A stretch of 64,000 bases of DNA from NCBI GenBank assembly GCA_965199495.1, contig CBDASK010000003.1:4064001-4128000 (forward strand), given 5' to 3'. How positions within the stretch are numbered: position 1 is the stretch's first letter; each line of letters starts with the position of its first letter. Both the position numbers and the translations under genes were made by a program. This document shows, piece after piece, positions 931-62,902 of this stretch. Origin of the DNA: Abditibacterium sp. GTDB lineage: Bacteria > Armatimonadota > Abditibacteriia > Abditibacteriales > Abditibacteriaceae. Below the pieces are notes generated by a model. That model searched no databases and was not told the DNA's origin. It saw nothing but the letters and a program-made list of their open reading frames with translations.

Positions 931-1388
931 TTTGGCTGTTTCAATTGCAAACCGAGGCTGAAAACGAGTGGCCCGACGAATTGCGCGCCGCCGTGGCTGC
1001 TTATCCGCGCGTGCCCAATTCGCCGCAATTCGAGGCGAATTTCTGGCATCGTCTCGACGCGCGCCGCAGCCACGCCGCCACGTTTCGTGGGAAATGCGAA
1101 CATTTCGCGCAAGTGCAAATCGGCGGATTATGCGTGTGGCGCTTATTGGGTTCCACGATGGCGGGCGCGGCGCTGCCCGCGTTGGGTTTATGTCTGGGAT
1201 TGATATTGTCTGCGCCGACTTCGCGCGCGCCGATTGCATTCGATGTTCCGGCATTTAGTGCGCTGGCGTGGCGCCAGTTAGAGCAACAACAAAGTTGGAA
1301 AACGCCGTGGAAACAGCAAACATTGGCGCTGTGGCTCGATGGCGGAAATGGATTTTCTGGAGGTGCGAAATGCCCAAACGTGGTTTAA
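927..1388 (+). CDS. Putative single-pass anti-sigma factor
   Basis: ATGA overlap with the sigma stop; N-terminal P-S-PQFEANFWHRL segment followed by one hydrophobic helix. Confidence 0.65.
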   Translation: MIWLFQLQTEAENEWPDELRAAVAAYPRVPNSPQFEANFWHRLDARRSHAATFRGKCEHFAQVQIGGLCVWRLLGSTMAGAALPALGLCLGLILSAPTSRAPIAFDVPAFSALAWRQLEQQQSWKTPWKQQTLALWLDGGNGFSGGAKCPNVV

Positions 1389-3457
1389 TCATTTTAGTAT
1401 TAGTGTGGAGCGTGCTGTTGCTTTTTCCCGCCTTCCAAATTCAGACGCGACGGATGTTGAGGACAACCACCGGAAGTAGCGAACCTTATTACTCCGTCAA
1501 GACGGATTGGGCGGAAATCGCGAAGTCGCATCCCGAAAGCGGGCTATTAGCTTTGGCGCAATTGCAATCCAAAATCAGTCCGCAGCAGAAGGGTTACGAG
1601 AGCGAACTCGATGCTTTAATGGCGCGCTTTCCCAATGACTTGGCATTGCGTCGCGCGTTCCTGATTGACTCCGTGCGGCCCGGCACTCTGGTGCGCGTCA
1701 TTCATTCGGTGCCCGATCTCAAAGCCAATCAAACGGCGAGCAAATCACAGAAACCCGCGCCGCAAATTAACGATGCGCGGCGAAGTTTCATTGCGCGCGC
1801 GGCGCGTCTGGGCGATAGACAGGCGCCAAATGATGCGTTTTTCCCGTGGATGGAAGCGATGGCGCTGTGGAATCGCGACGACGAATTGGGCTTGCGCGCG
1901 CTGGAACGCGCGGCTAAAAAAGCCAATTGGAATGATGGCACTCTGGAAAATCAGCGTGCGCTTTTGCAATTCGCAAACGCGCAAACTCCGCTCGATTGGG
2001 AAGAAAAAATCGCGTTTTCTTACAGCACAATATTCCCACATTACGCGCTGATACGCCAACTCGCGCGCGAAGTGACGTGGAGCGGTTTAGAACATTATAG
2101 GCGCGGTGATAAAGCCGGAGCTTACCGGCGTTGGGACGCGATTTTGAAGGCGAGTAGCGCGTTGCGGCGCGGTCAAAATCGTGGGCCCAATGCGAATTTG
2201 ATCGGTTTGTTGGTGGCCGAGGCGACGGAAAAGCTGGTCTGGGGGACTGTGGCGAGAGAACTCAATCCGCCCCCGAAAACGAGCGGTTCCTTTGATAATG
2301 TCGCTGCTAACACCGCGCGATTGAGCGCTTTTCAAACTCTCGCCAAACGCGACGGTTATGGCGACGTGGCTGCTCTGGTCGCGCGCGAAAACGCGACCTT
2401 TGAGGGGCGCGAATTGAGCCGCCAATTTTCCGACAAATACGATTTTCTGGGCATATATTCGCCCGCACAAATCACGGGCGCCCAGTTATTCTGGGTCGGA
2501 GGTCGCGCTTTTTATCTGGGCGTCGTCGGCGCTTTGGGATTGTTAGTCTGTTTAATTTGGCGCGTGCGCATGGGCGGCGCGCGTTGGTTTAGAGCATCGA
2601 GTTCGCAAATCGCGTTTTTCGGCGCGCTATGGTTGGGCGCTTTGGCGCTCGCCATGTGGGGCCGCGTCCAATCACAATTGCAACTGACCAACGGGCTGAC
2701 CGACAGCGCGACAGTTGTATCCGCACCGTCGTTGCTCCATGATTTTTTCGATAACTCATGGGGGCCGTGGCTCGCTATTTTTGCGACATTCGTGTTGTCA
2801 ATCGCTTTTTTTTACTGGCAAGCGTGGCGCGAGACGAGCCGACTGCAAAAGCAAGTTCTGCCGCCCGACCGAGCAGCCACGGCGGGCGCGTGGTTGCCAA
2901 AATTGAACGCCATCGCATGGATTTCAGTCGCGCTAAACACGCTGGTTATGCTCCTCGCTTCGGGGAGTGAAGCCAGCCGAACTCTCGCTCTAATGCTTTG
3001 GACGGTATGCGCAGTTGCGGCGTTGGGCCTGAATCTCTGGCGCATCGAGCGCGGCGAAAATCCCGCTAAACCGCGCGCGCGATTGGCGCTGATTGGCGTG
3101 GCGTGCGGTTTATTAAGTTTGGGTTTGACCGCGCAATTGGGCGCGCGCAACACTGAAAATATGGGTTACGCCGCAATGGCCAGTTTTTCAGTTACATTCG
3201 CGATTCTGATTTATTGGGCGGCGAATTGGCGCGGCTGGCGCCCGATGTTACCGCGCTCAATCGCCGTCGCACTCCAAACCTTGGGCGGCGTGGCTGTTGT
3301 TTGCTCAGTGATATTTTTAATCGTCTCATTGGCCGCATTACCAATTCGCGCGCGACAAAATCGCATCGTGGACGATTACATCGCGCGCGGCGAAATTGAC
3401 TGGATGCGCAATCAATCCAAATTTCGGAAGGCGAGCGCGGCGGTTGATGAACGATAA
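1370..3457 (+). CDS. Large membrane protein (N-terminal anchor, helical extracytoplasmic domain, multi-TM C-terminal region)
   Basis: Start MPKRGLIILVLVW overlaps the upstream gene; several hydrophobic helices in the C-terminal half. Confidence 0.8.
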   Translation: MPKRGLIILVLVWSVLLLFPAFQIQTRRMLRTTTGSSEPYYSVKTDWAEIAKSHPESGLLALAQLQSKISPQQKGYESELDALMARFPNDLALRRAFLIDSVRPGTLVRVIHSVPDLKANQTASKSQKPAPQINDARRSFIARAARLGDRQAPNDAFFPWMEAMALWNRDDELGLRALERAAKKANWNDGTLENQRALLQFANAQTPLDWEEKIAFSYSTIFPHYALIRQLAREVTWSGLEHYRRGDKAGAYRRWDAILKASSALRRGQNRGPNANLIGLLVAEATEKLVWGTVARELNPPPKTSGSFDNVAANTARLSAFQTLAKRDGYGDVAALVARENATFEGRELSRQFSDKYDFLGIYSPAQITGAQLFWVGGRAFYLGVVGALGLLVCLIWRVRMGGARWFRASSSQIAFFGALWLGALALAMWGRVQSQLQLTNGLTDSATVVSAPSLLHDFFDNSWGPWLAIFATFVLSIAFFYWQAWRETSRLQKQVLPPDRAATAGAWLPKLNAIAWISVALNTLVMLLASGSEASRTLALMLWTVCAVAALGLNLWRIERGENPAKPRARLALIGVACGLLSLGLTAQLGARNTENMGYAAMASFSVTFAILIYWAANWRGWRPMLPRSIAVALQTLGGVAVVCSVIFLIVSLAALPIRARQNRIVDDYIARGEIDWMRNQSKFRKASAAVDER

Positions 3458-3461: not shown

Positions 3462-6023
3462 TTATTGGCTTGCCATCGCCAACGTTTTGGCAATCGCTTG
3501 ACCTCCGTCGTTTCCGACCCATTTGATAAGACCGTCGCGCCCGACGAGGACGTAACGCGCGCCGCGATACAATTGGTGCGATTGGCCCGTAATCCAATCG
3601 GGCCCGTTTTGTTTGGGCAACGGCGCGTCAATGGCGACGGGATAAATTGTGCCCATGTCTCGTGCGCGGTCAACCAAATACTGCTCGCGATTGGCGATCT
3701 CGTTCGCGTCCCAGAACAGGCGCAGCTGTTCAACGCTCACGACTTGCACGCCACGCCCGCTCATCGAGCGCGCAAAATCGTTCAGCGCGCTCGAATGTCC
3801 GTTTAGCCACACGAAATAAAGCAGCGTGACTTTGCCCTGAAACGTTGGCGCTTTGCCGACGAGCCAACGCTGTGCGCGCAGTAGCGGCGCGAGCGTCCCG
3901 ACGAGAGCCGATTGGCTTTTGAGTAAAGTCTTCCCCTGCGCCATGTTACGCCGGTTTTTCGCGGCGTTCGAGCGGTGAAGGCGCGCATCCGTCAATTGAA
4001 ACCGCACGTTGCTGCGTCCGGCGCGCGTCCAAAAGCCATCCCAATATTTGCCTTTTTCGGGCGGGATGACCGAGATTTGCAGTTTCTCGTCGGGCACGTT
4101 GGGCAAATAAAAGCTTCCGTCCGCGCGCGTTTTAGTTTCTTGGCTATCGTCGCCCGGATTAATTGTGCCCGCCAAGAGCATAAACCCGGCGCCTACCGCT
4201 TGGCCATTGGCGCGCGTGATGCGGCCACGCAAAGTTTGATTGAGTGGTTTTAGCGAAACGGGCGCGCGTTTGGTTTCGCCCTGTTGTAGCACGAAAGTGC
4301 GCACGCTTTCCCGTCCGTAACCGTTTTTGCTGACGGTGAAATAGTGCGGCTGAAACGGGCGCAACTTGTCGAAGTGAAAGCGACCTTGTACATCCGTCAT
4401 CATCGTTTTGACCTGACGAGGATAATCTATCTGACCCGTGGCGCTATACCAAACTTTGGCGCCCGCAATTGGCTGGCCCGTCGCGCGATCCGTAATTTGA
4501 CCTTCGACCTGCGCATAAACTTTGGGTTCTATTTTGAGCGTGACATCGTCGCCCTCAAACGCATAAGTGCCGCGCGCCGTCGTCAACTCGCCTTTGCGGG
4601 CGAACAGATTTGCGCTATGTTCGTAGAGATGAAAGCGCCCATTGGCATCGGTGACGAGCGGCCCATTCCAGCCCTTTTCGCCAAACTCCAACGCTTGTGC
4701 GCCGACCTCGGCGCCAGCGACCGGTTTGCCGTCCGGCCCAATAACAATTCCGTTAATTGCTTTCGTCGCCACCGGTTCGGCTTTAGCGACGGCTTTGGTT
4801 TTGGGCAACTCGAACTGAATTTCGCGTTTGTCTCCGTCTTTGAGATTGAATTTATATTCCGATTTTGCGGGCAATCGGAAACCGGGCAATTTCAAATTCG
4901 AGCCAACGCTATGAAGCCGAATGGCGATTGGCCCCGGCGCCACGCGAAATTGAAATTTTCCGCGCGCATCGGTTTTGACGAGGCGCCCATAGCTATCTTG
5001 GTCGGCGGTCAAAACTTCGACGTTTGGAATCGGCTTTTTGCTGGTTTTTGAAACCACGATTCCGTTAATCGTAGCGCCGCGCATCAATTGGAAATCGTAA
5101 CTATTGGTGCCTGCACCAATAGTTACGCGTGATGTCGGTGGCGCGGCCCAATCTTTGGCGAGCTTGTCATCGAGACTCACCGCGATTTTGTATTGGCCCG
5201 GTTTTAAACCTTCAATCGAGTAACTTTTGTTGGCGTCCGTCGAACTGTTGACCGAGTGGGCGAAATTGAGCGAAGTTGCGGGCGAAACAAAGACCGTAGG
5301 GGTTGCTCTTTGGCCATTGGGAAACGAAACTTTGCCCGTCAATCGCCCCTTTTTCCCAATGCTCGCGGGTTTTATTGAAGTCTCAATTTCGATCTCGCGC
5401 TTCGCATTGATTTTAACCGGCAGAAAAACGAGGTTAGCCGCATCGATTTTCACATCTTTGTCCGAATCGCGATAATTTGGCGGAGTAACCGTTAGTTTCG
5501 CGGCTGTGGCTGTGCTGTTCCAATGAAAGCCCAGTTCCGCACTTTCGCTATAGTTTTTGATTTCCGTATTGACGAACGAAAACTTACTTTTGAAAAGATC
5601 GGGCGGCGCGATTTTGTTATCCCGTTGAAGCCACAACATCGCCTGACCCGCGTTCGCTCGCAAAAGAAATTTGCCCTGCGCATTCGTTTTGGTCTGGGTG
5701 AACTTGCCCTTACTATCGCGCAGTTGAACGATCTGTCCAGCGAGCGGAACCGTTGAGCCTCGGTAAAACACGACGCCGTGAATCAAGCCGACGGTTGATT
5801 TTACGGTTTCCGCTTCATTTTGCGCCCGCGCCGTCAGCCGCAACGGCACGACCGCCGCGAACGAAACGAGCAACGCCGCGCCCAGCAGCCACGCCGCCCG
5901 GCGCCGTGGCTGCATCGGGGCGCGGCCCAAGCGTTTGAGTCGCGTTGATAACGTGAAATAATCATCCGAAACGCCCAGCGTGAGCGGGTAGGAATCGTTG
6001 AAGTTAAATTTGGGGAATTTCAT
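3462..6023 (-). CDS. Membrane-anchored carboxypeptidase-regulatory-like (beta-sandwich) repeat protein with C-terminal Cys-less thioredoxin-like domain; protease-less paralog of the BlaR1-type gene
   Basis: Repeated G.V....G.P..GA.V / TDA.G.F motifs; N-terminus matches the post-M56 segment of 6145-9699. Confidence 0.82.
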   Translation of the reverse strand: MKFPKFNFNDSYPLTLGVSDDYFTLSTRLKRLGRAPMQPRRRAAWLLGAALLVSFAAVVPLRLTARAQNEAETVKSTVGLIHGVVFYRGSTVPLAGQIVQLRDSKGKFTQTKTNAQGKFLLRANAGQAMLWLQRDNKIAPPDLFKSKFSFVNTEIKNYSESAELGFHWNSTATAAKLTVTPPNYRDSDKDVKIDAANLVFLPVKINAKREIEIETSIKPASIGKKGRLTGKVSFPNGQRATPTVFVSPATSLNFAHSVNSSTDANKSYSIEGLKPGQYKIAVSLDDKLAKDWAAPPTSRVTIGAGTNSYDFQLMRGATINGIVVSKTSKKPIPNVEVLTADQDSYGRLVKTDARGKFQFRVAPGPIAIRLHSVGSNLKLPGFRLPAKSEYKFNLKDGDKREIQFELPKTKAVAKAEPVATKAINGIVIGPDGKPVAGAEVGAQALEFGEKGWNGPLVTDANGRFHLYEHSANLFARKGELTTARGTYAFEGDDVTLKIEPKVYAQVEGQITDRATGQPIAGAKVWYSATGQIDYPRQVKTMMTDVQGRFHFDKLRPFQPHYFTVSKNGYGRESVRTFVLQQGETKRAPVSLKPLNQTLRGRITRANGQAVGAGFMLLAGTINPGDDSQETKTRADGSFYLPNVPDEKLQISVIPPEKGKYWDGFWTRAGRSNVRFQLTDARLHRSNAAKNRRNMAQGKTLLKSQSALVGTLAPLLRAQRWLVGKAPTFQGKVTLLYFVWLNGHSSALNDFARSMSGRGVQVVSVEQLRLFWDANEIANREQYLVDRARDMGTIYPVAIDAPLPKQNGPDWITGQSHQLYRGARYVLVGRDGLIKWVGNDGGQAIAKTLAMASQ

Positions 6024-6144: not shown

Positions 6145-9100
6145 TTAATTGGACGAAGCCGTCGCCAGTTCAATCGCGCGGTTTAACTTGTCGCCCGCGT
6201 AAAGCACGCGCCCATCGCGCCCGATAACGGCGTATTCGGATTGACCGTAGCTTTGGAATGTCTGCCAGCCCAACGCGTTTTTGTCTGGCACAACCGCATC
6301 GACGGCGACGGGAAACCCCAGTCTGCGCGCGGCTTCGTCGGCGCTGATGTCGAATATCGGAGAAGTGACGCCCTTCACTTGAATTTGCACGCCGACGAAA
6401 TGAAATCGCTCGCCAAACGAGCGCGCCACATCGCGGATTTCGTTGTCGTTGCCGCCAAACGCGCCGAACATCAAAAATACCGGTTTATCGCGCAATTGGT
6501 TCAGCGATAACGCGCGACCATTCGACCACTGCACCGCGTGTAGCGGTGGTGCTGTTTTGCCGACGAGCGTTTCGGGTTTGACCGAACTTCTCAGCATCCG
6601 ATCGATGCGCGGGTAACTCGGATTGCGCGGCACTTTGGCCAGCCGAATCACCACGTTTTGATCGCCGCCCATCGCTTTCACCGGCTGCCATTGGTTGAGG
6701 CCCGGCTGTTGCGGGCCATAAACCGCGACCGAAATTGGCCCCGCCAAAACCTGCGGAATCGCAAATCGCCCATTTTTATCGGTGCCCACCGCGTTATCAC
6801 TGCCCGAAGCCGCGACCGAATAACCGCGCGCCGGTTGGTCGTCGGTGCCGTAAATCACGCCTTTCAAGGTTTTGGGCGCGCGTCGCAACGTCAATTCCAA
6901 ACGCCGCGTTTGGCCGGGTTGAAGCGGCGCCATATCAGTCACCCTGTCCGGTGAGTAACCGCTTTTCTTGGCTTCGACCCAGACGCTGGTGCCGGCCCGC
7001 AAGCGCGCGTAGCGAAACGCGCCGTTTTTATCGGTTTTGGTTCGGTCGCCGCTCAAGCCTGTTCTGCCGTAGAAGTGCGTCATGTTCACCGATATTCCGG
7101 CGAGCGGACGCTTGTTTTCGTCAAGCACGCGGCCTTCGACAATGGCCCACGCGTTGGGCGCCAACTGCAACTTGATCGAAGTGCCGGGCGCCGCAAAAGT
7201 CGAGTAGGGCGTCGTCATTTCGGCTTTGTCGGCGAAAAGTTGCACCAGTTTGTCGGAAACCTCGGCGGGCAAAGCGAAGCGTCCCTGCGCATTAGGTTGC
7301 ACTATTCTGTCAGAAACTTCAGCGGGCAAAGCGAAGCGTCCCTGCGCATCAGTTGGCACCGATTTGTTCAAATGAGAACCCATCTCGGCGGTATTTCGAT
7401 AAACGACTTGGGCGCCCGCGACGGCTTTACCGTCCAGCCCCACAACAACCCCACGAATCGGCGCGACCTGCGGTTTGGTGGGCACCGCGATTACAAACTC
7501 GCGTTTCTCGCCGACCTTTAAATTGAAGTCGAACTGATATTTGGCCGAGTCTATATCTTCGAGGGGCGCGCTCATGCCCTGCGCCGGAACCCACAAATGT
7601 TGTGCGCCCGCCAGACTGCGAAAACGAAAGTAGCCGCGCGCATCAGTCGTAGCATAATCGTAACTGCCCTGACTGTTGCGCAGACCAAGCGCCTTACCTC
7701 GAATCGGCTGGCCGGTCTGCTGCGATGTAACGACGCCCTGAATTAAGCCACCACGCGGCATAACCGCGTCCACGCGTTCGAGCGGCGACTGGAGCGTTTG
7801 CTTTTTATAAAACTCGATGCCGTTCGAGTTTTTCGGGCTGGGCGTGAACCAGACTTGATAATTGCTGGGCCGCAGATTCTCGATTTTGTAGTTGCCTTTG
7901 GCATCCACTTCGACGGGTTTGCCGTAACTTTCCCATGCGCTACCCAGTGCGTCTTTCACGCCTTGCGCCTCGGCGGCGCTGACGCGGCGCGTCATTACCG
8001 AAGTGCCGACTGCACTGGTGCCATCGGGCGAAGTGACGTGTCCCACCAAAACAACCGTTCTACGAATTGTAAAGGTGCGTTTGGTCTGTGGCGCCTCTAA
8101 ACTCACCAGCTCGTCAATGCCGATTTGTGACAATTGGCGCGCCTTGATTTGCGGCGCATCGAGTTGAAACTGCGCGACAAAGTTGGCTGGCAATGCCCGA
8201 AAGCTCACTTCGCCGTTCAAATTGGTTGTGCCGCGCATCGCGTTCAAGATTGGTCTGGGAATGTCGGCCCATAAGTTCTGTGATGGCCCTGCGCGGCGCA
8301 GCGAAACTTTCAAACCGTTAATTGGCTTGCCCGCGCCGTCAACAAAGCGCAACTGCGTGCGTGCGGCGGGCGCAACACGAACATTTAGAGGCGAATCCGG
8401 TTCGCGATAAACGTCGTAATGCACCATACCACGCGCGCCCGCATACACCAGGATTTCGGGCCGATTTTTGAGACCTCTCAACGAAAACTGGCCGTTGGCA
8501 TCGGTCGTCGCCGTTTGCAAAGGTGTGGCACCATTTTGCATCGGCTCCATCGCGTAAACCGTCGCACCAATTATTGGTGTGCCAACATAATCGCGCACCG
8601 TTCCGCTCAATACGCGCGTTTGTGTTGCCGATTGCGTTTCATTCTGCGCCCGCGCCGTCAACCGCAACGGCACAACCGCCGCGAACGAAACCAACAGCGC
8701 GCCCGCCAAAATCCAACCGACGCGGCGACGTGGCTGCATCGGCGCGCGGCCCAAGCGTTTGAGGCGCGTTTGGAGCGCGAAGAAACCATCGTTGACGCCC
8801 GCCGTTAAGGGCGAGGGTTGCGAACTTTCGGCGCCAATCAGCAACGCGCCATACAATTTGGGCGCGATTTGCGTCAGTTGCAACGTTAATTCGTCGCACG
8901 CGCTTTCGACTTCGAGCGCGTGATAACGCCGCGAAAACCAACTCAACGGATGAAACCATAACGCGGTTTGCATCGCCCACAGCAACGCATTCCACGTTAA
9001 ATCGCGGCGGCGCAAATGCGCCAATTCGTGCGCGAAAACCGCTTCGAGATGCGATTCGTCCAATGTGTGCGGCACGACAATTGTTGGGCGCGCGATGCCA

Positions 9101-9699
9101 ACCAAAAACGGCGAACCGCTCGCGCTTTGCAGCAATCGCGGCGCGCGGCGAATTTTTAAGCGCGCGGCGATGGGACGCAAAACTGCGTTGTCGAGCGGCC
9201 CACACGCGCGCAGAGCGCGGCGCACGCGCACGATATTGCGCGCCAAAAGCGCGAGTTGAAGCGCGATGCCCAAGAGATAAATGCAGACCGCCACATCGTC
9301 CCACGAATTGATGTCGATCAAATAATGCGGCTTCGCAACCGGCGCGCGTTGAATTGTGGGCGCTTGAATAATCGCAGACGGCGCCATTTCGACGGGCGCA
9401 TTTTCCGTATCGGGCGATGCAGCCACGGCGGGCGCGTTGGCGATTATTGGCGCTTGAATCGCGGGCGCCTCAATGGTTTTCGGCGCGACAATCGGCGCTT
9501 TCGCGGGCAAAATCGCGACGGCGATTGGCGCGAACGGAATCAGCGCCAAAGCCGTTTGAATTAAGGCGACCCGCCAAACCCAAACGCGCCAGCGCGCCGG
9601 AACGCGGTTCGATAAAATCCACTGCAAAAGTAGCGCGATGCCCAGAGCAGCCACGCCGAACAGACTGGCGCGTTGGAGAATTAAAAAGAACTCGTTCAT
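6145..9699 (-). CDS. BlaR1/MecR1-family M56 metallopeptidase sensor with beta-sandwich repeats and C-terminal thioredoxin-like domain
   Basis: HELAHLRRRD zinc motif, LWFHPLSW, ESACDE. Real start MNEFFL at 9699 overlaps the blaI-like stop (ATGA). Confidence 0.9.
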   Translation of the reverse strand: MNEFFLILQRASLFGVAALGIALLLQWILSNRVPARWRVWVWRVALIQTALALIPFAPIAVAILPAKAPIVAPKTIEAPAIQAPIIANAPAVAASPDTENAPVEMAPSAIIQAPTIQRAPVAKPHYLIDINSWDDVAVCIYLLGIALQLALLARNIVRVRRALRACGPLDNAVLRPIAARLKIRRAPRLLQSASGSPFLVGIARPTIVVPHTLDESHLEAVFAHELAHLRRRDLTWNALLWAMQTALWFHPLSWFSRRYHALEVESACDELTLQLTQIAPKLYGALLIGAESSQPSPLTAGVNDGFFALQTRLKRLGRAPMQPRRRVGWILAGALLVSFAAVVPLRLTARAQNETQSATQTRVLSGTVRDYVGTPIIGATVYAMEPMQNGATPLQTATTDANGQFSLRGLKNRPEILVYAGARGMVHYDVYREPDSPLNVRVAPAARTQLRFVDGAGKPINGLKVSLRRAGPSQNLWADIPRPILNAMRGTTNLNGEVSFRALPANFVAQFQLDAPQIKARQLSQIGIDELVSLEAPQTKRTFTIRRTVVLVGHVTSPDGTSAVGTSVMTRRVSAAEAQGVKDALGSAWESYGKPVEVDAKGNYKIENLRPSNYQVWFTPSPKNSNGIEFYKKQTLQSPLERVDAVMPRGGLIQGVVTSQQTGQPIRGKALGLRNSQGSYDYATTDARGYFRFRSLAGAQHLWVPAQGMSAPLEDIDSAKYQFDFNLKVGEKREFVIAVPTKPQVAPIRGVVVGLDGKAVAGAQVVYRNTAEMGSHLNKSVPTDAQGRFALPAEVSDRIVQPNAQGRFALPAEVSDKLVQLFADKAEMTTPYSTFAAPGTSIKLQLAPNAWAIVEGRVLDENKRPLAGISVNMTHFYGRTGLSGDRTKTDKNGAFRYARLRAGTSVWVEAKKSGYSPDRVTDMAPLQPGQTRRLELTLRRAPKTLKGVIYGTDDQPARGYSVAASGSDNAVGTDKNGRFAIPQVLAGPISVAVYGPQQPGLNQWQPVKAMGGDQNVVIRLAKVPRNPSYPRIDRMLRSSVKPETLVGKTAPPLHAVQWSNGRALSLNQLRDKPVFLMFGAFGGNDNEIRDVARSFGERFHFVGVQIQVKGVTSPIFDISADEAARRLGFPVAVDAVVPDKNALGWQTFQSYGQSEYAVIGRDGRVLYAGDKLNRAIELATASSN
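7239..7352. repeat. In-frame 57-bp tandem duplication inside the M56 gene
   Basis: Encodes DAQGRFALPAEVSDRIVQ followed by NAQGRFALPAEVSDKLVQ. Confidence 0.9.
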
Positions 9700-10220: not shown

Positions 10221-11561
10221 ATGAAACGAATTTCTCTTCTCTGCGTCGCGATATTTGGTTTGTGCGCCATTGGGCGCGCGCAACCAGCCACGGCGCCCGA
10301 TGTGGTGGCATCCGCAGCGACTCCACAGATTGATGTTCAGGCGCAAACGTTTATCGAGCAGATGGTAGCGCGTTACTCGGCGCTGAAATCGTATTCCGAT
10401 GTGACGCAAATGCGCATGGAAGACACGACGAAAGCCCCGACAAAAGCGGACGGCATGAAACCGATGGATTTTCAGGCGACGCTACAATGGGAGCGGCCCG
10501 CCGACATTCGCTTCGAGGGGCGCGATAGCAGCGGCGCGTTTCTGGCGCTGGGCACGCCCGATATTCTCCGCATTGTTTCGGCGCATCATCCCAATAATTA
10601 CGTCGCGCGCCAACGCAGCAAAATCCAAACGGTGACAGATTCCACTGGCAAGCAAGTGGAAGTTCCGGCCCCACCGATTCGGCTGGCCGAACCGACGTAT
10701 GGCGATCCGATACCGGGCGGCCCGGCGATGGGCTTTATTTTTCAACCAGATTCTTGGTCGCGCATGCAAAAAGATGTGCGCTCGCTGCAATTCGACCCCG
10801 ATGCACAAACCGATGGTGAGGATTGCCGCGTCGTGCGCGCGGATTCTTTGAGCGACGATGGCCACCGTTCCTCCACGCGCCTATTCGTCGCCAAAAGCGA
10901 CGGTTTGCTGCGTCGTGCGGAACTGTGGTTCGATCAATTGCCCGCCAATAATATCATCGTCGAAACGCATTCCGATGTGAAGGTCAATCCCGATTTGCCC
11001 GCTTCGACGTGGGAGTTTGAAGCGCCCGCTAACGAGCAACCGATCGATTATTTCTCGCGTTTGGACGAGCATAAATTCGATGCCGGTTTGAAAATTGGCG
11101 CGCTGTTGCCGACCTTTTCCGCCGAGGCTGTGGACGGTAGTCCGCTCGAACTGAACCCGAAAAGCGGTAAAGTCACCGTCGTCTATTTTTTCAGAATGAG
11201 CATGGGCACGCATGATGTCCAAGTCCTCAACAAAATCTCGCGTCTGGTCGGCCCCGACAAACTGCAAGTCGTCGGCGTTTCGGGCGATGGTTTGCGCCCG
11301 CGCATCGAAGAATTCGCCAAGCACTACAAATTGAATTTTCCGATTTACTTCAATGAAAGCGCTATGGCAAACCAATTAGTGCTAAAGTTCGGCGTCCAGA
11401 AATGGTCGAGCAGCTTTATTTTTGACAAAGACGGCACGCTAAAATTCGTGGATAGCAGCCCTTCATACTCTGATTTTCAGGATCATCTGCGCACGCTCAT
11501 TCCCACTCTGAAAAGCGCCGATTTTATTCCGCAAGGCGACGAAATCATCCAAGCCCAATGA
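10221..11561 (+). CDS. Secreted LolA-like/DUF2092-like domain fused to a TlpA-like redoxin domain lacking CxxC
   Basis: Signal peptide; YSALKSYSD...VKVNPDLPASTWEFEAP; C-terminal LPTFSAEAVDG...GKVTVVYF...LNFPIYF. Confidence 0.75.
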   Translation: MKRISLLCVAIFGLCAIGRAQPATAPDVVASAATPQIDVQAQTFIEQMVARYSALKSYSDVTQMRMEDTTKAPTKADGMKPMDFQATLQWERPADIRFEGRDSSGAFLALGTPDILRIVSAHHPNNYVARQRSKIQTVTDSTGKQVEVPAPPIRLAEPTYGDPIPGGPAMGFIFQPDSWSRMQKDVRSLQFDPDAQTDGEDCRVVRADSLSDDGHRSSTRLFVAKSDGLLRRAELWFDQLPANNIIVETHSDVKVNPDLPASTWEFEAPANEQPIDYFSRLDEHKFDAGLKIGALLPTFSAEAVDGSPLELNPKSGKVTVVYFFRMSMGTHDVQVLNKISRLVGPDKLQVVGVSGDGLRPRIEEFAKHYKLNFPIYFNESAMANQLVLKFGVQKWSSSFIFDKDGTLKFVDSSPSYSDFQDHLRTLIPTLKSADFIPQGDEIIQAQ

Positions 11562-12380: not shown

Positions 12381-13454
12381 TTCTTCAAAGTCAGCGCGCA
12401 AAACCACGCGGCGCCGCCCGTCTTTTTCGTAGACCGAGGGCATCGCGTCCTGCTCCTTCCACAAGCGTTCATACGATTCGTAGCGCGAGGCGGCGATTGT
12501 GCCCGCCGCCGTGGCTGCTTTGATGGCGCAGCCCGGTTCGATGATATGCGTGCAATCGTTGAACTTGCAATCGTTAATTAATGGCACGAATTCGGGGAAA
12601 CACCGGTCTAACGCGACATCTTCGGTTTCCAAGAGCGTCACGGTTTTGACGCCCGGCGTATCGGCGATGTAGCCACCGCGCGGGAGCGGATGGAGCGAAA
12701 CGTCGGTCGTGGTGTGGCGGCCTTTGCCGATGTCCATAACTTCGCCGATCCACAGTTGCAAGCCGGGCTGAACCATCATCACCAGACTCGATTTGCCCAC
12801 GCCCGAACTGCCGATAAACGCCGAAATGTGATCTTTCAAGGCCGCGCGCAACTCTTTGGTGCCGGTGTCCTTGCCCTTTTCCGCGCTCGTCAAAATGACT
12901 TGATAACCCAATTTTTCGTAGAGTTGTTGGTACGGCTCCAACTCTTTTTTCTGTTCGCGCGGCTTCATCAAATCAATTTTGTTGAAGCAAATCACCGCTT
13001 CCAGTTCGTTGGCTTCGGCTAAAACCAAGAATCTGTCCAGACGATGAGGATTAATATCGGGATCGCGCGCCGCCATCACGACGATGACCTGATCCAAATT
13101 CGCCACGGTAATTTGCGCGGTTTTGTTATAGCGCGAGCGGCCCAGCGCTGATGTGCGCGGCAAAACTTCCTCGATGAAACCTTCGCGCAGCAAGCGGCCC
13201 CGCGCGTCGGCGCCCGAAGTTTCGAGGACGCGCACGCTCACGCGGTCGCCGACCGAAACCGGTTGCGAAAAGCGGCGGCGCTCTTTTTTTGGGTTTTTCA
13301 ATCGTCCGCCCAGAGCGCACAAAATCGGCGCGCGGTCGTCGCCTTCGGATGGCACGTCCACTTCGTAAGTGCCGCCGCCCGCGCCCATCACGATGCCTTC
13401 GATCATTTCTGGCGCGTTTTCGATTTCGGTTTGATTATTTTCGGTTGAATCCAT
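12369..13454 (-). CDS. rsgA: Ribosome small subunit-dependent GTPase A
   Basis: NKIDL, GSSGVGKSS, GRHTT, DTPG and Zn finger CKFNDCTHIIEPGCAI. Confidence 0.96.
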   Translation of the reverse strand: MDSTENNQTEIENAPEMIEGIVMGAGGGTYEVDVPSEGDDRAPILCALGGRLKNPKKERRRFSQPVSVGDRVSVRVLETSGADARGRLLREGFIEEVLPRTSALGRSRYNKTAQITVANLDQVIVVMAARDPDINPHRLDRFLVLAEANELEAVICFNKIDLMKPREQKKELEPYQQLYEKLGYQVILTSAEKGKDTGTKELRAALKDHISAFIGSSGVGKSSLVMMVQPGLQLWIGEVMDIGKGRHTTTDVSLHPLPRGGYIADTPGVKTVTLLETEDVALDRCFPEFVPLINDCKFNDCTHIIEPGCAIKAATAAGTIAASRYESYERLWKEQDAMPSVYEKDGRRRVVLRADFEEEEK

Positions 13455-45758: not shown

Positions 45759-46175
45759 ATGAAATTCGCTCTTACTTTCGCGCCCGACACGCGCGAGCCA
45801 ATCATTGGACGCACACTTTCGCAGTTGCATCTGGCGTTCAAACGGGGGCTTGGCGGCGAGATTTTTCAGGTTCAACTCGATCCCGAAAAAGACGACGGAA
45901 CAATTGAAGGTTTGAACGCCTTTTTCAACGCCAAGCGCGCGTGGCTTATCTGGAGCAACGCCGATGGCGAATGGCTTTATCCAGTCAATACCGAACACGC
46001 CGCGTTAGAGCCGATTGAAGAAGATTGTTTCATCGAAAACGGGCAGTTGGACAGCTACTCAATCGCGTGGAGTCATGGGCGCGAACGCGCGATTCGCGTG
46101 TTAATTCACTATTTCGAGACCAGCGCACTGGCGCCGTGGCTGCATTGGACGAGCGAAGAATATTGGATAAATTAA
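45759..46175 (+). CDS. Hypothetical protein, possibly Imm1-like immunity protein
   Basis: Resemblance from recall only: NG..D.....W......A......YFET..L..WL.W. Confidence 0.5.
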   Translation: MKFALTFAPDTREPIIGRTLSQLHLAFKRGLGGEIFQVQLDPEKDDGTIEGLNAFFNAKRAWLIWSNADGEWLYPVNTEHAALEPIEEDCFIENGQLDSYSIAWSHGRERAIRVLIHYFETSALAPWLHWTSEEYWIN

Positions 46176-51907: not shown

Positions 51908-53038
51908 TTATTTGCTTTTGTCTCCCGCTTCGGTATTAGCCAATTTCTGTTGAAGCAAACCCAGAACCGCCGCCTCTTCGGGCTTCAATCCCGACAAATC
52001 GCCGCTCAGTTCTTCCTCGACTTTTTGCTGCAAACTTTCCAACATATCGCCGTCAAAATACGCCTCGATAACCGCCGGGTGGATATACGATTTGCGGCAC
52101 ACGGCGGGCGTGTTGCCCAATTTTTCGGCGACGGTTTTGACCGCCTCGACCACGTTTTGCGCGGCAGTGCCCTGATCAGAAAAATCCTCGAATTCCTGCA
52201 ACGCCAGACTGGCAGCCACGGTGCCCGCCCACGTCCGAAAATCCTTGGCGGTGAAATGATCGCCCGCGATTTCATGCAGATATTCGTTGACATCGCCCGA
52301 AGTGATGTTATGGATTTCGCCGTCTTCGTCCACAAATTGAAACAACGATTGGCCGGGCAAATCCTGCAACTGCTCGACGATGCGGGCGAGTTTGGCGTCT
52401 TTCAAGTCTATTTCGTGGTCTTTGTGGCTTTTGCCGGTGAACTCAAAATGCACGATTACACCCTCGACTTCGACGTGCCGGTTTTCTAAAGTCGTCAAAC
52501 CGTAAGTCTCGTTTTGGCGCGCATATTCTTCGTTGCCCACGCGAATCGCGGTTTTTTCCAGCAGTTGAATAATCGCCGCCAAAACTTTCTCGCGCGACAG
52601 TTTGCGCGCGCGCATATCGGTGCCAGTGCGCTCGCGAATCGCGGGCAACGCGTGGGCAAACGCGATGAGGCGCGTGAATTTCGCTTCGTCGCGAACCTCG
52701 CTCCAGCGCGGATGATAGCGGTATTGTTTGCGGCCTTTATCGTCCAAACCGGTGGCTTGGATATGGCCGTCGGGGTCGGGGCAAATCCACACATCCGAAT
52801 AAGCGGGCGGAATCGCGAGCGCGTTAATGCGCGCGCGAACTGTTTCGTCTTTGATAGTTTTGCCCTTGACATCTTTGTAAGAAAACCCTTTGCCCGCGCG
52901 CCGCCGCGTGATGCCGGGGCTGTCGTCGTGAACGTAGTTTAAACCGGCGCGTTCGGCGCTTTTTTCAGGGTCTTTTGAGTCTTCGAGCGAAGGCAAATCG
53001 GCGATGAGTTGCGAAGCGGATGCAGCGGTTTGAGACAT
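51908..53038 (-). CDS. Bacterial DNA topoisomerase IB
   Basis: IPPAYSDVWIC, GRKQYRYH, IRVGNEEY, FTGKS, FTAKDFRTW, LGNTPAVCRKSYIHP. Confidence 0.95.
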   Translation of the reverse strand: MSQTAASASQLIADLPSLEDSKDPEKSAERAGLNYVHDDSPGITRRRAGKGFSYKDVKGKTIKDETVRARINALAIPPAYSDVWICPDPDGHIQATGLDDKGRKQYRYHPRWSEVRDEAKFTRLIAFAHALPAIRERTGTDMRARKLSREKVLAAIIQLLEKTAIRVGNEEYARQNETYGLTTLENRHVEVEGVIVHFEFTGKSHKDHEIDLKDAKLARIVEQLQDLPGQSLFQFVDEDGEIHNITSGDVNEYLHEIAGDHFTAKDFRTWAGTVAASLALQEFEDFSDQGTAAQNVVEAVKTVAEKLGNTPAVCRKSYIHPAVIEAYFDGDMLESLQQKVEEELSGDLSGLKPEEAAVLGLLQQKLANTEAGDKSK

Positions 53039-53152: not shown

Positions 53153-55111
53153 CTAACTCATCGCTTTAGTTGCCGCCATTTCGGCGTCGCGCGCGATGCT
53201 GATTTGACGCGCCATTTCGCGCAAAGCCGCGCGGTCGCTTTCCGTCAGCGTCGCGCCGACGAGGGGCGCGATGGCGCTGGCGGCGTCCAGAGAATCGGCG
53301 CTTAACGCGAAGTTGGAAATCGCTACGTTTAGGTTGCCTTTGTTCTGGCGCGCGGCGACTTCGCAAAACGCGGCGGCGCGGCGGCGCTCTCGCGCCCAGT
53401 TGCGCGCGGGTTCGCCAAAAAACGCGACGACATTGCGCGCGCGCGGCGCGAAATCGCGCGGGATGGGCGTCGCCGTGGCTGTTGGCAGGGGCACAGCCAC
53501 GCCGTTGGCATCAACGGCGTTTTCTTCGGCGCGCGCGGGCGGCTCGGCGAAGCCGCCAAACGCGGTTGGATCGGGACTGTCGGCGATTCTCACCAACTCT
53601 CGCGCCAGATAATTCAGACCGGCGATATTGAGCGACACCGTGTCGTTGCCCTGACGATTCATCATCTGCGCGGCGCGGCGTAGCGTCCGCGAGTTCGCGT
53701 CGGATTGCTGGAGGCGCGGCAATTCCCAGATGAACTGCGGCGTCGAGTTGAGTTTGGGACTGGCGGGCACAACTGTCGCGCCGGGCGCGGGAGTGCCATT
53801 GGGCGTTTGCGAGGCGCTGAGTTGTTGCAGCGTGCGCGGTTTTTCGCCCGCGCCCAGAAAACTGAGCATCGTATAACTTTTGCCGAACTTGCTTTTGGCC
53901 TTCCACATTTGGACGAAACTTGCGACCGCGAGCGTATTGAACTGCGCGCCTTGATCTTGCAGATAAACCTCGCCGCGCTCGGAATCGTAACCCACGCACA
54001 GCATCCAACGGCCCTCGCCGCTGTTTTCGATGTAAAGCAATGGCTCGTGCGCCGAATCTATATCGTTTTGCAAGGCGCGCAACGCGTTCTCGGCTTTGTC
54101 ATAACCGGTCAGGCTGAAACGCAACCCCGCGTTGGCCACGATGTTGGCGAACTGATCGAACGAGGGCGCGACGACGCGGCCCGGATTTGTCGTATCAATG
54201 CCAACATAGAACGGCGCCAGACTCCAGCCACGGGTCACGGTCGTATCTACGCTCAGGCCGCGCGCGCCCAGCAGAATATCGAGCGCCTGCCACAAATCGC
54301 TGCCTTTGGTGGGCGCGCTCAGTCCATCGGTATCAATGAGCGGCGCGATGTCGAGCAAAACGCGGCGCACTGGACGGCGGCCCAACTGTTCGTTATAGGC
54401 CAATAATCCCAAACGCTCGCGCGCCTCGCCCGCCCACACCGATTTGGGATAGCGTCGCAACGTGGCGTCGTAGGCGCGCTGGGCTTTGTCGCGTTGCTTG
54501 AGCAACGTTTCGTAAAGCACGCCCAGATGAAACTGGGCTTCGGCGCCCGCCTCGCTGTTGTTGGGCCAGTTGGCGATGACGCTTTGCAACAGAGCCAGCG
54601 CGGTTACGCCATCGTTTTCATCGAGCGCGAGACGGCCCAGTTTGGTCGTCGCCATCGCGGCGGCATCGGAGCGGTCGGAATTGCGCTTGAGAATTTCCTG
54701 ATAAAAACGCCGCGCCGACGGGCCATCGCTCAAATCTTCGGCAGCGATTTGTCCGGCATCAAACAGGGCGGCGTTGCCCAATTTGTTGTCGGGATAATTC
54801 TGCGCTAATTTGGCGTAAGCGTCCATTGCGGCGCGCAGGTCGCCCGTATTTTTGTTGGCTCGCCCACGCGCCGAAAGCAGATCGCCCTCTTTGAGCAAAG
54901 CGCGCGGCGCGAGCGACGATTCGGGATGGCGATTGGCCACGAGCGCGTAGTGCCGCAGCGCGAGCGAAATTTGTCCGGCCTCTTCGAGCTGGCGCGCGCG
55001 GGAAAACAGGCTGGCCCCGGCGTCGGGCGCGATGAGAACGCGACCGATCAGAATCAGCGCGCACAATAACGCGACGGTGAGAAACCCGTTGAAAAGATGG
55101 CGAGGAGTCAT
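53153..55111 (-). CDS. Membrane-anchored TPR protein with C39-peptidase-like C-terminal domain
   Basis: TM helix, TPR repeats (..YP.S..A..A), and WMLCVGYD...VYLQD. Confidence 0.75.
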   Translation of the reverse strand: MTPRHLFNGFLTVALLCALILIGRVLIAPDAGASLFSRARQLEEAGQISLALRHYALVANRHPESSLAPRALLKEGDLLSARGRANKNTGDLRAAMDAYAKLAQNYPDNKLGNAALFDAGQIAAEDLSDGPSARRFYQEILKRNSDRSDAAAMATTKLGRLALDENDGVTALALLQSVIANWPNNSEAGAEAQFHLGVLYETLLKQRDKAQRAYDATLRRYPKSVWAGEARERLGLLAYNEQLGRRPVRRVLLDIAPLIDTDGLSAPTKGSDLWQALDILLGARGLSVDTTVTRGWSLAPFYVGIDTTNPGRVVAPSFDQFANIVANAGLRFSLTGYDKAENALRALQNDIDSAHEPLLYIENSGEGRWMLCVGYDSERGEVYLQDQGAQFNTLAVASFVQMWKAKSKFGKSYTMLSFLGAGEKPRTLQQLSASQTPNGTPAPGATVVPASPKLNSTPQFIWELPRLQQSDANSRTLRRAAQMMNRQGNDTVSLNIAGLNYLARELVRIADSPDPTAFGGFAEPPARAEENAVDANGVAVPLPTATATPIPRDFAPRARNVVAFFGEPARNWARERRRAAAFCEVAARQNKGNLNVAISNFALSADSLDAASAIAPLVGATLTESDRAALREMARQISIARDAEMAATKAMS

Positions 55112-59540: not shown

Positions 59541-60206
59541 ATGAAAACCAACTCTTTCAAAATGTTACTGGGCACTGCTGCCCTTGGTCTGGCTCTAACA
59601 GCCACGGCGCCTGTTGCGCGCGCGATGGATATGCCCGCGACGATGGATTTCAAATCGGCGCTCAACAATAACCTCGACAAATTGTTCATGGTTCACGCTT
59701 ATCAGGGCAACTTGGGCGAAGTCAAACTGGGCAAACTGGCCGAAATGCGCGCCAAAGACCCATCGGTGAAAATGGTCGCCAAAACCATCGTTTTGGAACA
59801 CGGCATCGCCAACCGCGATTTGCTCGGACACTTCAAAGAGTTGGGCGTGCCCGTTCCCAAAGATGCGGGCATCGCCAACGCCGCGCTTTACGAGAAAATG
59901 ACGACTTTGCACGGTTCGGCCTTCGACAAAGCCTATATCGCCGCGATGGCAGGCGGGCACGAAGCGGCAGTTGTGTTGTATTCGCACGAAGTGGATTCCG
60001 GCAAAAACGCCACGGCCAAAGCCTATGCCGCCAACAAACTGCCCGGCATTTTGGGACACACCGCGATGATTTATCAATGCGCCAAAAAGGTCGGTGCGCC
60101 CGGTTTGAATTTGCGTCCCGCTCCGGTCAAAGAAGCCGCGCCCGCCGCAGCCAAAGAACACGAAGCGATGGTCAAGATGAAGATGGAAAAGATGGGCAAA
60201 ATGTAA
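59541..60206 (+). CDS. Secreted DUF4142-like (ferritin-like) protein
   Basis: Signal peptide; EVKLGKLA, FDKAYIAAM..GHE, AYAANKLP. Confidence 0.8.
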   Translation: MKTNSFKMLLGTAALGLALTATAPVARAMDMPATMDFKSALNNNLDKLFMVHAYQGNLGEVKLGKLAEMRAKDPSVKMVAKTIVLEHGIANRDLLGHFKELGVPVPKDAGIANAALYEKMTTLHGSAFDKAYIAAMAGGHEAAVVLYSHEVDSGKNATAKAYAANKLPGILGHTAMIYQCAKKVGAPGLNLRPAPVKEAAPAAAKEHEAMVKMKMEKMGKM

Positions 60207-60817: not shown

Positions 60818-62902
60818 CTACTTTTTCCACGTCACAGCCGGGAATTTTAACGTCGCCGTTTCGGCTTTTTCGTTCGAGATTTCGGTCGCGCGAATATCGA
60901 GGTCTATCGCCGTGGCTGCTGTTGAGTTGGGCGCGGGCAAAATCAGCGAAAGCGCGCCCGCCGTGGTGCCACTCAGCAAATCGCCGCGATAAATCGGGCC
61001 ATTGATTTCCTGCGCGTCGCCTTTGTCGGCGCGCAAGGTGGACTTTTCCAGCGTAATTTCGGCATCGGCGGCGAAGGGCGTGTAATCGAAAACCGCCACC
61101 AGAGCGCTGTCGCCTTTGAATTTGGCCGCCGCGCCCTGCGCCAAGAGCAAGGTCTCGATTTTGTCGGCGGGGAGCCACGCGATCTTCTTCAATTGCAACG
61201 TGCCTGTGCCCACCGTTTCGTCAACGGCGCGCTGCGAATCGGGAGCGACCGCCAAATTTTTGGCGCTGAAACTGTGGCGCAAACGCCGAAACGAGCGCAC
61301 ATCGAGCGCGAAATCGGTGGTCGCATCGAACTTGCCGTAATTTTTGTTAAAGCGCGTCGCGGTTTCGCCGGGCACGGGCGGCGCGCCGTCGGAATGAAAG
61401 AAAACTTCGTCGGAAGTTTCGCCAAAGACAACCATTTTGTTGTCTTTGCCCTCGCTGTCGCGGGCGCGCAGTTCGACGGGGACGGTCACCGTTTCGACCA
61501 GAGTTTGCGTTTGCTCGGCGTTATTTTTCTCGGCGGGCGCGACCCAGACCAAACCGAGATAATTGTCGCCGCGCTGCACCTCTTCGATGCGCGCCGCGAA
61601 TTTGCCGTCGCTCGCGCTCCATGCGGGCAACGCTTCGGGATCGTCGGCGGGCGGCGCGACAACTGGCGCGGGCGGATTCGCCTTGAGCAGAGCAGAGACC
61701 GGCACCTCGACTTCGATCGTGCTATACGCGTCTTTTTGCTTCCACGCCTCGTCGAACTCGGTCATTAATAAAGTGATTTTCGCTTCTTTGGCGCCATCTT
61801 CGGGTAAAGCGGGCATCCGAACCGACACGCCTTGTGCAGTGCCGGTCGAATACGAGCCGCCCGCGCGTAGCGAGCGATTCTGGTCGTCCACGATGTTTTG
61901 GATGTCGCTGTCAATTCGCGCGTTCGGCGCGTCTTTGGGTCGCGTCCACTCGATGTTGTAAGTCGTGGTTTTCTTGTCCCAATCGCCGATAATGGAAGTC
62001 AAAGTCAGAACTGTTCCGTGCGCCGTTGTGACCTGCGAATTGGTCTTGCTTACGGGATTTTCGCGCGTGGGCAATGGGCCGCTCAGCGTGTAGGGCGCGC
62101 GAAAGCGTCCGCTCGAATCGGCATTGGCGTCGGGCGAAGTCGTTTCCCAGATCGCGGTCACGCTTTTCCATTGCGGGTTGACTTTGGGAAACGAAATCAC
62201 GCGCGCCTCTCCCGTGTTGCCCGCTCCGCTCCCGACCAGCATTTGGCCATCGGGCGCGCGCACGCCCAATAAATGCGCCCATTCGTAATAGGGCCGCGTG
62301 GTTTTGGGTTCGCGCGGCTCGAAGACGCGATAAGACAAAAAGTAGACGGGCCGCGTATTTTTGCTCCAATTGAAAATTTGGTTTTCCGGCTGAAACCCGC
62401 CATCCACGACGCGCACGCGCACGCCTTTGGAATCGGCGGGCGGCGGCAACAATCCGCGAAGCGGCGTCGGCGTGGCTGGGTCGGGCGGAATCGTCGGAAC
62501 CGGCGAACTCCATTCGAGCGCGCGCGCGTTCATCGGTTTTCCCGTGCCGCCGTCGCGCCCGACGGCGCGCAATCGTAGGCCGATAGTCAAATCGCCCAAA
62601 CCATAAATCGTGCCCTGACGCAAATCTATCAAACGCGTTTGGCCGTTGGTCACGAGGGTTTTGGGTTTGGGCGGGTTCAACGATTTTCGTCCGTTGGGCG
62701 TGGCAAACGCCGTCGCCAAAATCGTGACTTCACCGGTCGCGCCGTTGATGCCGCGAACTTCGCCTTCGAGCGCGATTTCGCCCGGCTGCAAAATCGCGCC
62801 TTGTTGCGCAGTCAATTCGGTTTTATCCGGCGTTTGTGCCCACGCGCGCGGGCAGGGCGCCAAGGCGCACACTCCAAAGATGAGAAAATAAGAACGTTTC
62901 AT
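60818..62902 (-). CDS. Secreted multi-domain hypothetical protein (N-terminal DUF5666-like OB domain)
   Basis: Signal peptide MKRSYFLIFGVC...AWAQ; EGEV..I...L..G..LRAVG...A..L. Confidence 0.72.
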   Translation of the reverse strand: MKRSYFLIFGVCALAPCPRAWAQTPDKTELTAQQGAILQPGEIALEGEVRGINGATGEVTILATAFATPNGRKSLNPPKPKTLVTNGQTRLIDLRQGTIYGLGDLTIGLRLRAVGRDGGTGKPMNARALEWSSPVPTIPPDPATPTPLRGLLPPPADSKGVRVRVVDGGFQPENQIFNWSKNTRPVYFLSYRVFEPREPKTTRPYYEWAHLLGVRAPDGQMLVGSGAGNTGEARVISFPKVNPQWKSVTAIWETTSPDANADSSGRFRAPYTLSGPLPTRENPVSKTNSQVTTAHGTVLTLTSIIGDWDKKTTTYNIEWTRPKDAPNARIDSDIQNIVDDQNRSLRAGGSYSTGTAQGVSVRMPALPEDGAKEAKITLLMTEFDEAWKQKDAYSTIEVEVPVSALLKANPPAPVVAPPADDPEALPAWSASDGKFAARIEEVQRGDNYLGLVWVAPAEKNNAEQTQTLVETVTVPVELRARDSEGKDNKMVVFGETSDEVFFHSDGAPPVPGETATRFNKNYGKFDATTDFALDVRSFRRLRHSFSAKNLAVAPDSQRAVDETVGTGTLQLKKIAWLPADKIETLLLAQGAAAKFKGDSALVAVFDYTPFAADAEITLEKSTLRADKGDAQEINGPIYRGDLLSGTTAGALSLILPAPNSTAATAIDLDIRATEISNEKAETATLKFPAVTWKK

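Follow-up and report, generated by a model that had tools for sequence, protein, structure and literature searches.

A hyper-abundant, lineage-specific DNA word in Abditibacterium with same-strand spacing: a putative self-DNA signal

The stretch analysed here (the window) comprises 64,000 nucleotides of an Abditibacterium sp. genome (assembly GCA_965199495.1, contig CBDASK010000003.1, positions 4,064,001 to 4,128,000 of the forward strand) and carries, among others, gyrA, gyrB, thrS, rsgA and genes for a DNA ligase, a topoisomerase and a nuclease-helicase. A non-palindromic nine-base word recurs across it on both strands. An earlier reading made from the letters without database searches (the sequence-only reading) had listed 29 exact copies, 16 on the plus and 13 on the minus strand, every one of which was matched (Table 1). 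It had put the chance level at about one copy per window, in agreement with a mean of 0.78 and a maximum of 4 in 100 dinucleotide shuffles, and the GTGGCTG core at about 50 occurrences, of which we counted 51; its assumed GC content of ~58% was too high, the measured value being 55.7%. No copy lies in gyrA or inside the Mrr-domain gene (20245-20865), and the single gyrB copy does fall in an acidic insertion, which reads DSSHAV. The motif is longer than the nine bases first proposed: flanking positions extend it, in graded fashion, to CG(C/G/A)CGTGGCTG(C)(T/A).

The enrichment is not confined to the window. In the genome that holds it (G000), the 9-mer occurs 1,783 times (864 and 919 by strand), evenly across 200 kb bins, and is the first-ranked 9-mer in an order-5 Markov comparison. 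Changing one base of the GTGGC core lowers the count 13- to 250-fold, the outer positions being less sensitive. With genes from a simple purpose-made caller (3,880 genes, 83% coding), 1,614 copies (91%) are coding, compared with 96 expected from within-gene synonymous shuffles (10 runs, maximum 111) and 253 from a dicodon model (5 runs, maximum 263); the excess, 6- to 17-fold over codon-aware nulls, thus survives the dicodon test. Corresponding figures for the 11-mer CGNCGTGGCTG, which is evenly dispersed at about one per 2.2 kb, are 1,992 against 61 and 156, and those for a control word 134 against 79 and 66. The earlier statement that copies lie in different reading frames stands in that all six frames exceed the synonymous shuffle, but two frames dominate the coding copies (sense xVA, 681; antisense AT/AAT, 555). 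Like the FtsK-orienting polar sequences (KOPS), the word is a polar dispersed motif; unlike them, and unlike architecture imparting sequences, it has no leading-strand skew and no switch at ori or ter. Its leading-strand share is 53.5% for the 9-mer (952/1,780) and 50.9% for the 11-mer (1,109/2,179), whereas 296 of 380 copies (78%) of a separate word that we take to be KOPS are leading in G000, with polarity flips at about 4.32 Mb and, close to dnaA, at 2.03 Mb.

Across 301 genomes of the phylum, the 11-mer pattern is abundant in only three, with 2,113 copies in G000, 1,776 in G011 and 720 in G004 (reversed controls 23-32); no other genome exceeds 134 copies, for which the control gives 131. 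These three genomes form one clade with a support of 1.0 in a tree of ThrRS, DprA and ComEC. Conservation in relatives, which the sequence-only reading had named as a check, is seen in G011, the closest relative, where 25 of 33 sites in 65 gene alignments are exact and silent positions are kept (106 of 111 four-fold positions identical inside the motif, compared with 0.74 outside). Sites nevertheless turn over, as only 5 of 43 are exact in G004. In four word-less relatives the aligned positions are mostly several substitutions apart, often with changed residues, with gaps at 2-3 sites each; for four outgroups the tally of gapped sites is 0-3 out of 20-39. Since the relatives differ by substitutions and gaps are few, the word arises in place. 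The word is real, selected, genome-wide and lineage-specific.

Horizontally acquired DNA is depleted, another point raised beforehand. No copy of the 11-mer occurs on C1, a 24.7 kb contig that resembles a Mob-type mobilisable plasmid in a reading of its proteins (11.4 expected), and one on C2, a 64.6 kb phage-like contig with a 2,400-aa tape-measure-like protein and, by eye, capsid-like genes (29.8 expected), which together gives 1 copy against about 41. Both contigs share the host's avoidance of 6-base palindromes, and the scarcity of the word despite this shared restriction-site avoidance fits a drive confined to DNA that recombines into the chromosome. A prophage-like region of G000 has 7 copies against 25.5 expected; chromosomal islands were chosen from the largest word gaps and hence provide no independent evidence of depletion. 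A full comM and three copies of its 3′ part lie in a word-poor region of G000 at 1.12-1.25 Mb (C3 1121149, 1166288, 1196968 and 1255880), which suggests elements integrated into comM.

Copies in G000 avoid neighbours on their own strand. Relative to expectation, same-strand 11-mer pairs stand at 0.04-0.14 below 300 bp, 0.24-0.32 at 300-600 bp and 0.75 at 1.1 kb, and return to about 1 beyond 1.5 kb, whereas opposite-strand pairs stay near 1 but are 2- to 4-fold in excess at less than 25 bp; among pairs 50-500 bp apart, 43 of 271 are same-strand. Among 1,041 abundant asymmetric 8-mers (median same-strand ratio 1.26), the bottom seven places (0.09-0.50) all went to fragments of the word. Gene boundaries do not stop the exclusion, not even where neighbouring genes point in opposite directions or a spacer intervenes. 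It extends to much the same degree on the 5′ and 3′ sides of a site, and one-mismatch variants take part in it when the change is at positions 1-2 or 11, though not at 4 or 7. Because the ratio at short range approximates the neutral level given by the shuffle and dicodon nulls, a second same-strand copy probably gains nothing rather than being purged. The 1-1.5 kb scale of exclusion resembles the conversion tracts of 1.1-1.7 kb described for Neisseria in the available text of PMC2397512. Same-strand spacing of uptake signals was not found in the literature searched, which covered few subscription papers and left supplements aside; in their available portions, PMC1939737 and PMC5861425 discuss spacing with no strand analysis.

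Among 27 genomes of the Abditibacteriaceae, surveyed in samples of 2-160 kb each and then by whole-genome counts, 11 carry hyper-abundant words in six dialects, and none was seen in samples of the other 16 (10-22 kb for G005, G008 and G021). G000 and G011 share CGNCGTGGCTG; G004 has the longer GTAGGACGTGGCTGGTGTCG, frequently as inverted pairs; G001 has TTCCACAAAAAATGAAG (12-mer count 2,162, control 1); and G017 has TTCGACCGTACT, of whose 206 copies 124 sit in inverted pairs, many of them T-tailed, and which shows a spacing exclusion to about 800 bp. Palindromic dialects, which belong to two other genera, are ATCGAGTACTCGAT (G020, G022, G024 and G042), CTGCAAGTACTTGCAG (G014) and CAAAGTACTTTG (G018, many copies one-sided). 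An AGTAC pattern shared by these six genomes and G017 occurs 1,087-7,332 times against controls of 345-1,084, and 123 times in G041 (control 1,011). The G020 palindrome is spaced (7 pairs against 26 expected under 400 bp), that of G014 weakly so. Inverted pairs in terminator-like intergenic positions are clear by eye in G017 and G004 and few in G000. Searching 15 samples for gapped motifs brought back the G011 word and nothing new that was comparable, and the same literature held no description of such a word in Abditibacterium or of these dialect words.

Candidates dropped from the survey were TGTGGCTGC in G021 (4 copies in 10 kb; genome-wide 240 against a control of 114) and a G003 palindrome and a G007 word that proved local (one locus and one repeat gene, respectively). 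A palindrome found about six times at G003:C3:1-20000, TTTTGCACACGTGTGCAAAA, is operator- or parS-like. Small clusters of the G001 word occur in the word-less G008 (C13, C64), G005 and G007 (25, 13 and 9 copies), like 'peregrine' DNA uptake sequences (DUS) or remnants. Restriction-type words are avoided family-wide, in G000 with CGGCCG, CTCGAG, CCGCGG and TTCGAA at 0.01-0.03 of expectation and CTAG and GTAC at 0.04-0.10; GTAC is avoided in many family genomes, yet forms the core of dialects in two genera. Such avoidance was rejected as a correlate of the word, which it does not track.

Established cases of sequence-specific DNA uptake signals come from two bacterial families, and the function of cyanobacterial HIP1 (highly iterated palindrome 1) is still argued. 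The present word resembles DUS and the uptake signal sequences (USS) in being a non-palindromic word of 10-15 bases, present about once per 1-2 kb on both strands without replichore bias; in its preferred reading frames, its scarcity in mobile DNA and the presence of competence genes; and in its clade-specific dialects, with inverted intergenic pairs in some relatives. Comparable dialects and inverted pairs are described for Neisseriaceae DUS in the available text of PMC3630211 and 10.1101/2025.10.24.684340, and Pasteurellaceae USS in that of PMC7811141 and PMC2817400, the latter including frame bias and tripeptides. The differences are an unrelated sequence and phylum, the genic position of about 90% of copies, close inverted pairs that in G000 are seldom intergenic (17/86), dialects that are perfect palindromes, and a same-strand-only exclusion that is absent from a Neisseria-type control (DUS only). 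The word is DUS-like in distribution, with one DUS feature, the equivalence of orientations, failing.

The explanation we favour, with a confidence that falls somewhat short of even, is that the word is a putative self-DNA signal, propagated through transformation and read on each strand separately. Chromosomal DNA bearing the word would win in natural transformation, be it at uptake, import or integration, and the word would accumulate as DUS and USS do. A single-strand piece of about 1-1.5 kb would need one copy in the correct orientation; another on the same strand would add almost nothing, and one on the opposite strand would be no help. Reading could take place at or after the ComEC step, which passes one strand into the cell: ComEC lets only one strand across, according to the available text of PMC7811141, and some strand preference is noted for single-stranded DUS in that of PMC12061091. 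Inverted pairs and palindromic dialects might then arise, since one place would serve both strands. Transformation would be the driving process, supplying strands from both DNA strands equally, giving an allele a first-order advantage and omitting plasmid and phage DNA. A duplex receptor should render the two orientations redundant, a signal linked to the fork or to FtsK should be polar, and an enzyme that degrades up to a site should spare weak sites on one side; the pattern would instead suit a benefit that reaches saturation on each strand within 1-1.5 kb.

Several observations weigh against a transformation signal read per strand. Strand specificity is firm in G000 only: in samples of relatives, unpaired copies 100-1000 bp apart are 9 same- versus 8 opposite-strand in G004, 12 versus 13 in G017 (a blunt test, since a degenerate partner accompanies many of the 'single' copies) and 4 versus 10 in G011, a hint of exclusion, and the G001 word is itself clustered, with 15 same-strand pairs at 60-300 bp against about 8 expected. 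Neisseria-type DUS show 61 same- versus 68 opposite-strand pairs at 100-600 bp, compared with 54 versus 254 in G000 (Fisher P 5e-10), in a control of 47 of 137 stretches (781 kb; overlaps, loci below 8 kb and close pairs removed) whose loci had been found via an inverted pair; same-strand pairs are nonetheless few there below 100 bp. Matches to ComEC (27/27 family genomes) and DprA (25/27) are as common in genomes that lack a word as in those that have one, so transformation is not marked out by gene content. On the supporting side, ComEA, secretins and PilB/PilT occur in all five genomes searched, and G000 encodes full-length ComEC (DUF4131, Competence and lactamase domains), ComEA, DprA, secretins, PilB/PilT and ComM, besides a pilus operon. 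Truncated comEA and comEC matches in G012 are a single case, and the broken comEC of word-less G041 and G023 was unusable as evidence, as thrS matches there also hold stops. No reader protein was found, a giant pilin having been the candidate and no search with PF16732 having been made. The sequence-only reading is upheld in proposing a lineage-specific DNA-level signal unlike Chi or KOPS (codon nulls, phylum count, no skew). Its suggestion of an uptake function agrees with genomic hallmarks seen in the family (dialects, inverted intergenic pairs, absence from mobile DNA, competence genes) but is countered by the lack of a receptor, by competence genes that are as common without the word and by the same-strand-only exclusion, in which the word departs from Neisseria-type DUS.

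Intracellular repair tracts predict the same spacing, which also counts against the transformation reading and makes them its main rival, although we consider this rival unlikely. The word would be a single-strand repair or recombination signal (RecA-loading, resection-stop or mismatch-repair strand) acting about once per kb per strand, with a Chi-like role after the loss of AddAB; random breaks or bidirectional repair tracts would yield same-strand spacing without replichore bias. Like Chi, the word is asymmetric, orientation-dependent, GT-rich and within genes. A search for recombination genes found no tblastn match to E. coli RecB, RecC, RecD or MutH in G000 (95% complete), with MutS, MutL, RecF, RecJ, RecQ and SbcCD matched by E. 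coli queries, and UvrD_C had a single match (about 800 aa) each in G000, G004 and G011. Frames of AddA size (1,059-1,162 aa) are present in most other members of the genus, seven in all (G001, G002, G005, G006, G009, G010 and G012) and absent from these three and from genera g3-g6. AddA loss and word gain map to the same branch, on which AddAB appears to have been lost. RecD2 and NurA were not found, NurA (0/13 genus and 6/27 family genomes) being discarded as a substitute resection nuclease, and resection would rest on RecJ, RecQ and RecF. However, six family genomes lack both AddA and, in samples, the word, and G001 has both. A cis benefit should, given time, extend to resident mobile DNA, yet C1 and C2 are without the word; the symmetric exclusion of weak sites around strong ones fits a degrade-until-site enzyme poorly; and species-level dialects and terminator-like pairs are DUS traits. 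Classical Chi is not involved, because RecBCD/AddAB was not found in G000; the word is, moreover, longer than Chi, far more enriched and without leading-strand bias, and its kilobase-scale spacing is not seen in the first 100 plus-strand E. coli Chi sites, where 8, 2 and 8 pairs occur up to 1 kb against 5.7, 5.7 and 7.6 expected, the first figure (8 against 5.7) being for distances under 300 bp.

Less likely still is an ordinary double-stranded uptake sequence with a receptor at the pilus tip or in the periplasm, in which case the strand spacing would be a side effect of binding or cutting in one orientation ahead of import. Dialects, the T-tailed inverted intergenic pairs of G017, the extended pairs of G004 and the DUS-like behaviour of the clustered G001 word would all suit it, but if only the duplex were bound, either orientation should stand in for the other, as it does in the Neisseria-type control. 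A tip receptor for DNA, ComZ, is described in the available text of PMC6561018. The type IV pilus operon of G000 (C3 861101-880963) ends in two paralogous 1,300-aa PilX-type pilins, and this giant pilin is tandemly duplicated in G000, G004 and G011; it is, however, present in 25 of 27 family genomes. It has no Pfam match and no solved relative by sequence, and Atlas features point to PilX_N/DUF4900 clusters. Its model (mean pLDDT, the predicted local distance difference test, 59; first 129 residues omitted) consists of sandwich and barrel domains without a Foldseek match at E<=0.001, the best hits (Z 7.8) being phage and carbohydrate-binding folds, with small barrel folds also matched at Z below 8 and ComZ not listed.

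We regard as improbable a site for a polar chromosome-organising or translocating protein, such as a nucleoid protein or condensin loader, as proposed for HIP1. Even dispersal and the graded information content of the motif would agree with such a role. HIP1, whose spacing is non-random in the available text of PMC5861425, is likewise hyper-abundant, selected and mostly coding, and the dialects of G014, G018, G020, G022, G024 and G042 are palindromic as well; the G000 word, by contrast, is asymmetric, and dialects here vary within one family whereas HIP1 is kept across a phylum. Against an organising role stand the lack of ori-ter polarity, the flat density along the chromosome and the 16 of 27 relatives without a word in samples, and a duplex architectural protein would have no clear reason to ignore opposite-strand neighbours.

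Mutational drive by a methyltransferase and biased repair, the methylase model reportedly put forward for HIP1, seems very improbable. It could draw on the family's strong avoidance of many restriction-type palindromes, on AGTAC dialects built of such words and on an N6/N4 methyltransferase gene common to G000 and G004 (84%). Among methylase genes listed for five genomes, however, none is common to the word-bearing genomes searched (G014 has no C5 and one N6/N4 match), a further difference from HIP1; pure mutation bias yields no kilobase spacing, and a methylase target of 11-17 graded positions would be a long one. A codon, peptide or composition artefact, which the genic position of most copies and the two dominant frames might suggest, is refuted for practical purposes, because codon-aware nulls are exceeded (the dicodon null accounts for 16%) and close relatives with the same proteins lack the word.

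If a per-strand signal in transformation does underlie the word, a wider scenario becomes possible, albeit a doubtful one: the Abditibacteriaceae may have evolved, independently, a third means of recognising self-DNA, with a sequence-specific factor that reads DNA in transformation while it is single-stranded or being threaded in one direction, each site licensing about 1-1.5 kb of strand. Specificity would have switched repeatedly in the family, and strand reading would drive asymmetric words to inverted pairs (G004, G017) and on to perfect palindromes (G014, G018 and the G020 group). This would offer a possible route by which HIP1-like palindromes arise; HIP1 raises transformation according to the available text of 10.1101/2024.09.10.611283 and PMC13756078. 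The link between DUS-type and HIP1-type words is testable, because one family holds asymmetric, paired and palindromic words together with word-less sister species. The words would be the first addition to DNA when transformation of these bacteria is attempted, and they are strong binning markers. Same-strand-only spacing could serve as a measurable fingerprint of the step at which reading of a word occurs, and any genome can be screened for it.

Table 1 Copies of the word in the 64 kb window (window coordinates)
Feature	Position	Strand	Context
9-mer	992..1000	+	sense, AVAA; opposite-strand copy 74 bp away
9-mer	1066..1074	-	antisense, same gene as 992 copy
9-mer	2365..2373	+	sense (DVAA)
9-mer	2873..2881	-	antisense (AATA)
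11-mer CGNCGTGGCTG, final C absent	3286..3296	+	
9-mer	5885..5893	-	close inverted pair with 5905
9-mer	5905..5913	+	close inverted pair with 5885
9-mer	8729..8737	+	antisense (MQPR)
9-mer	9419..9427	-	sense
9-mer	9647..9655	-	sense; 228 bp from 9419, only same-strand 9-mer pair <900 bp in window
11-mer	10285..10295	-	
9-mer	12510..12518	+	rsgA, antisense
11-mer	13875..13885	-	
9-mer	14908..14916	+	SpoIID/LytB-domain gene
9-mer	16456..16464	-	opposite-strand copy 161 bp away
9-mer	16617..16625	+	
9-mer	19178..19186	+	ATP-dependent DNA ligase gene, antisense
11-mer	21228..21238	-	
9-mer	21603..21611	+	antisense (SH frame)
11-mer	22622..22632	-	
9-mer	22988..22996	+	antisense
9-mer	24517..24525	-	sense (WLL)
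9-mer	27253..27261	+	sense
9-mer	31494..31502	-	gyrB acidic insert
9-mer	36913..36921	-	HSP90-family gene, antisense
9-mer	37692..37700	+	HSP90-family gene, sense
9-mer	38670..38678	-	
11-mer	41510..41520	-	MTHFR-domain gene
9-mer	44071..44079	+	thrS (IDVAA); kept in G004, other residues at aligned codons in G006, G009, G010
9-mer	46135..46143	+	WLH
9-mer	47913..47921	+	nuclease-helicase gene, antisense
9-mer	48830..48838	-	nuclease-helicase gene, sense
11-mer	50958..50968	+	
9-mer	51284..51292	-	sense
9-mer	52212..52220	-	topoisomerase IB gene
11-mer	53471..53481	+	close inverted pair with 53494
11-mer	53494..53504	-	close inverted pair with 53471
11-mer	59599..59609	-	
9-mer	60911..60919	+	antisense
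11-mer	62468..62478	+	
11-mer	63882..63892	+	

Other features of the window include gyrB (28616-32092, 1,158 aa), which has an intein (Pfam Intein_splicing, residues 488-871) within its Toprim domain in addition to the acidic insert, a bacterial topoisomerase IB (51908-53038) and an ATP-dependent DNA ligase (18515-20203). A 1,421-aa protein combining a RecB-like PD-(D/E)XK nuclease with a DNA2/NAM7-type helicase is encoded at 47365-51630, in a genome without RecBCD/AddAB. An Rfam scan of the window returned nothing beyond one tRNA. The stretch at 164-260 is an inverted intergenic repeat with GTAGAGACACCGA arms, of which there are about 160 in the genome, and G000 has two further intergenic families, TCTCACAAGA (about 130) and GTCATTCTGAG (about 120), which are like repetitive extragenic palindromic sequences (REP) or miniature inverted-repeat transposable elements (MITE). 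These true intergenic repeats are separate words, 97-100% intergenic, in contrast to the 91% coding word.

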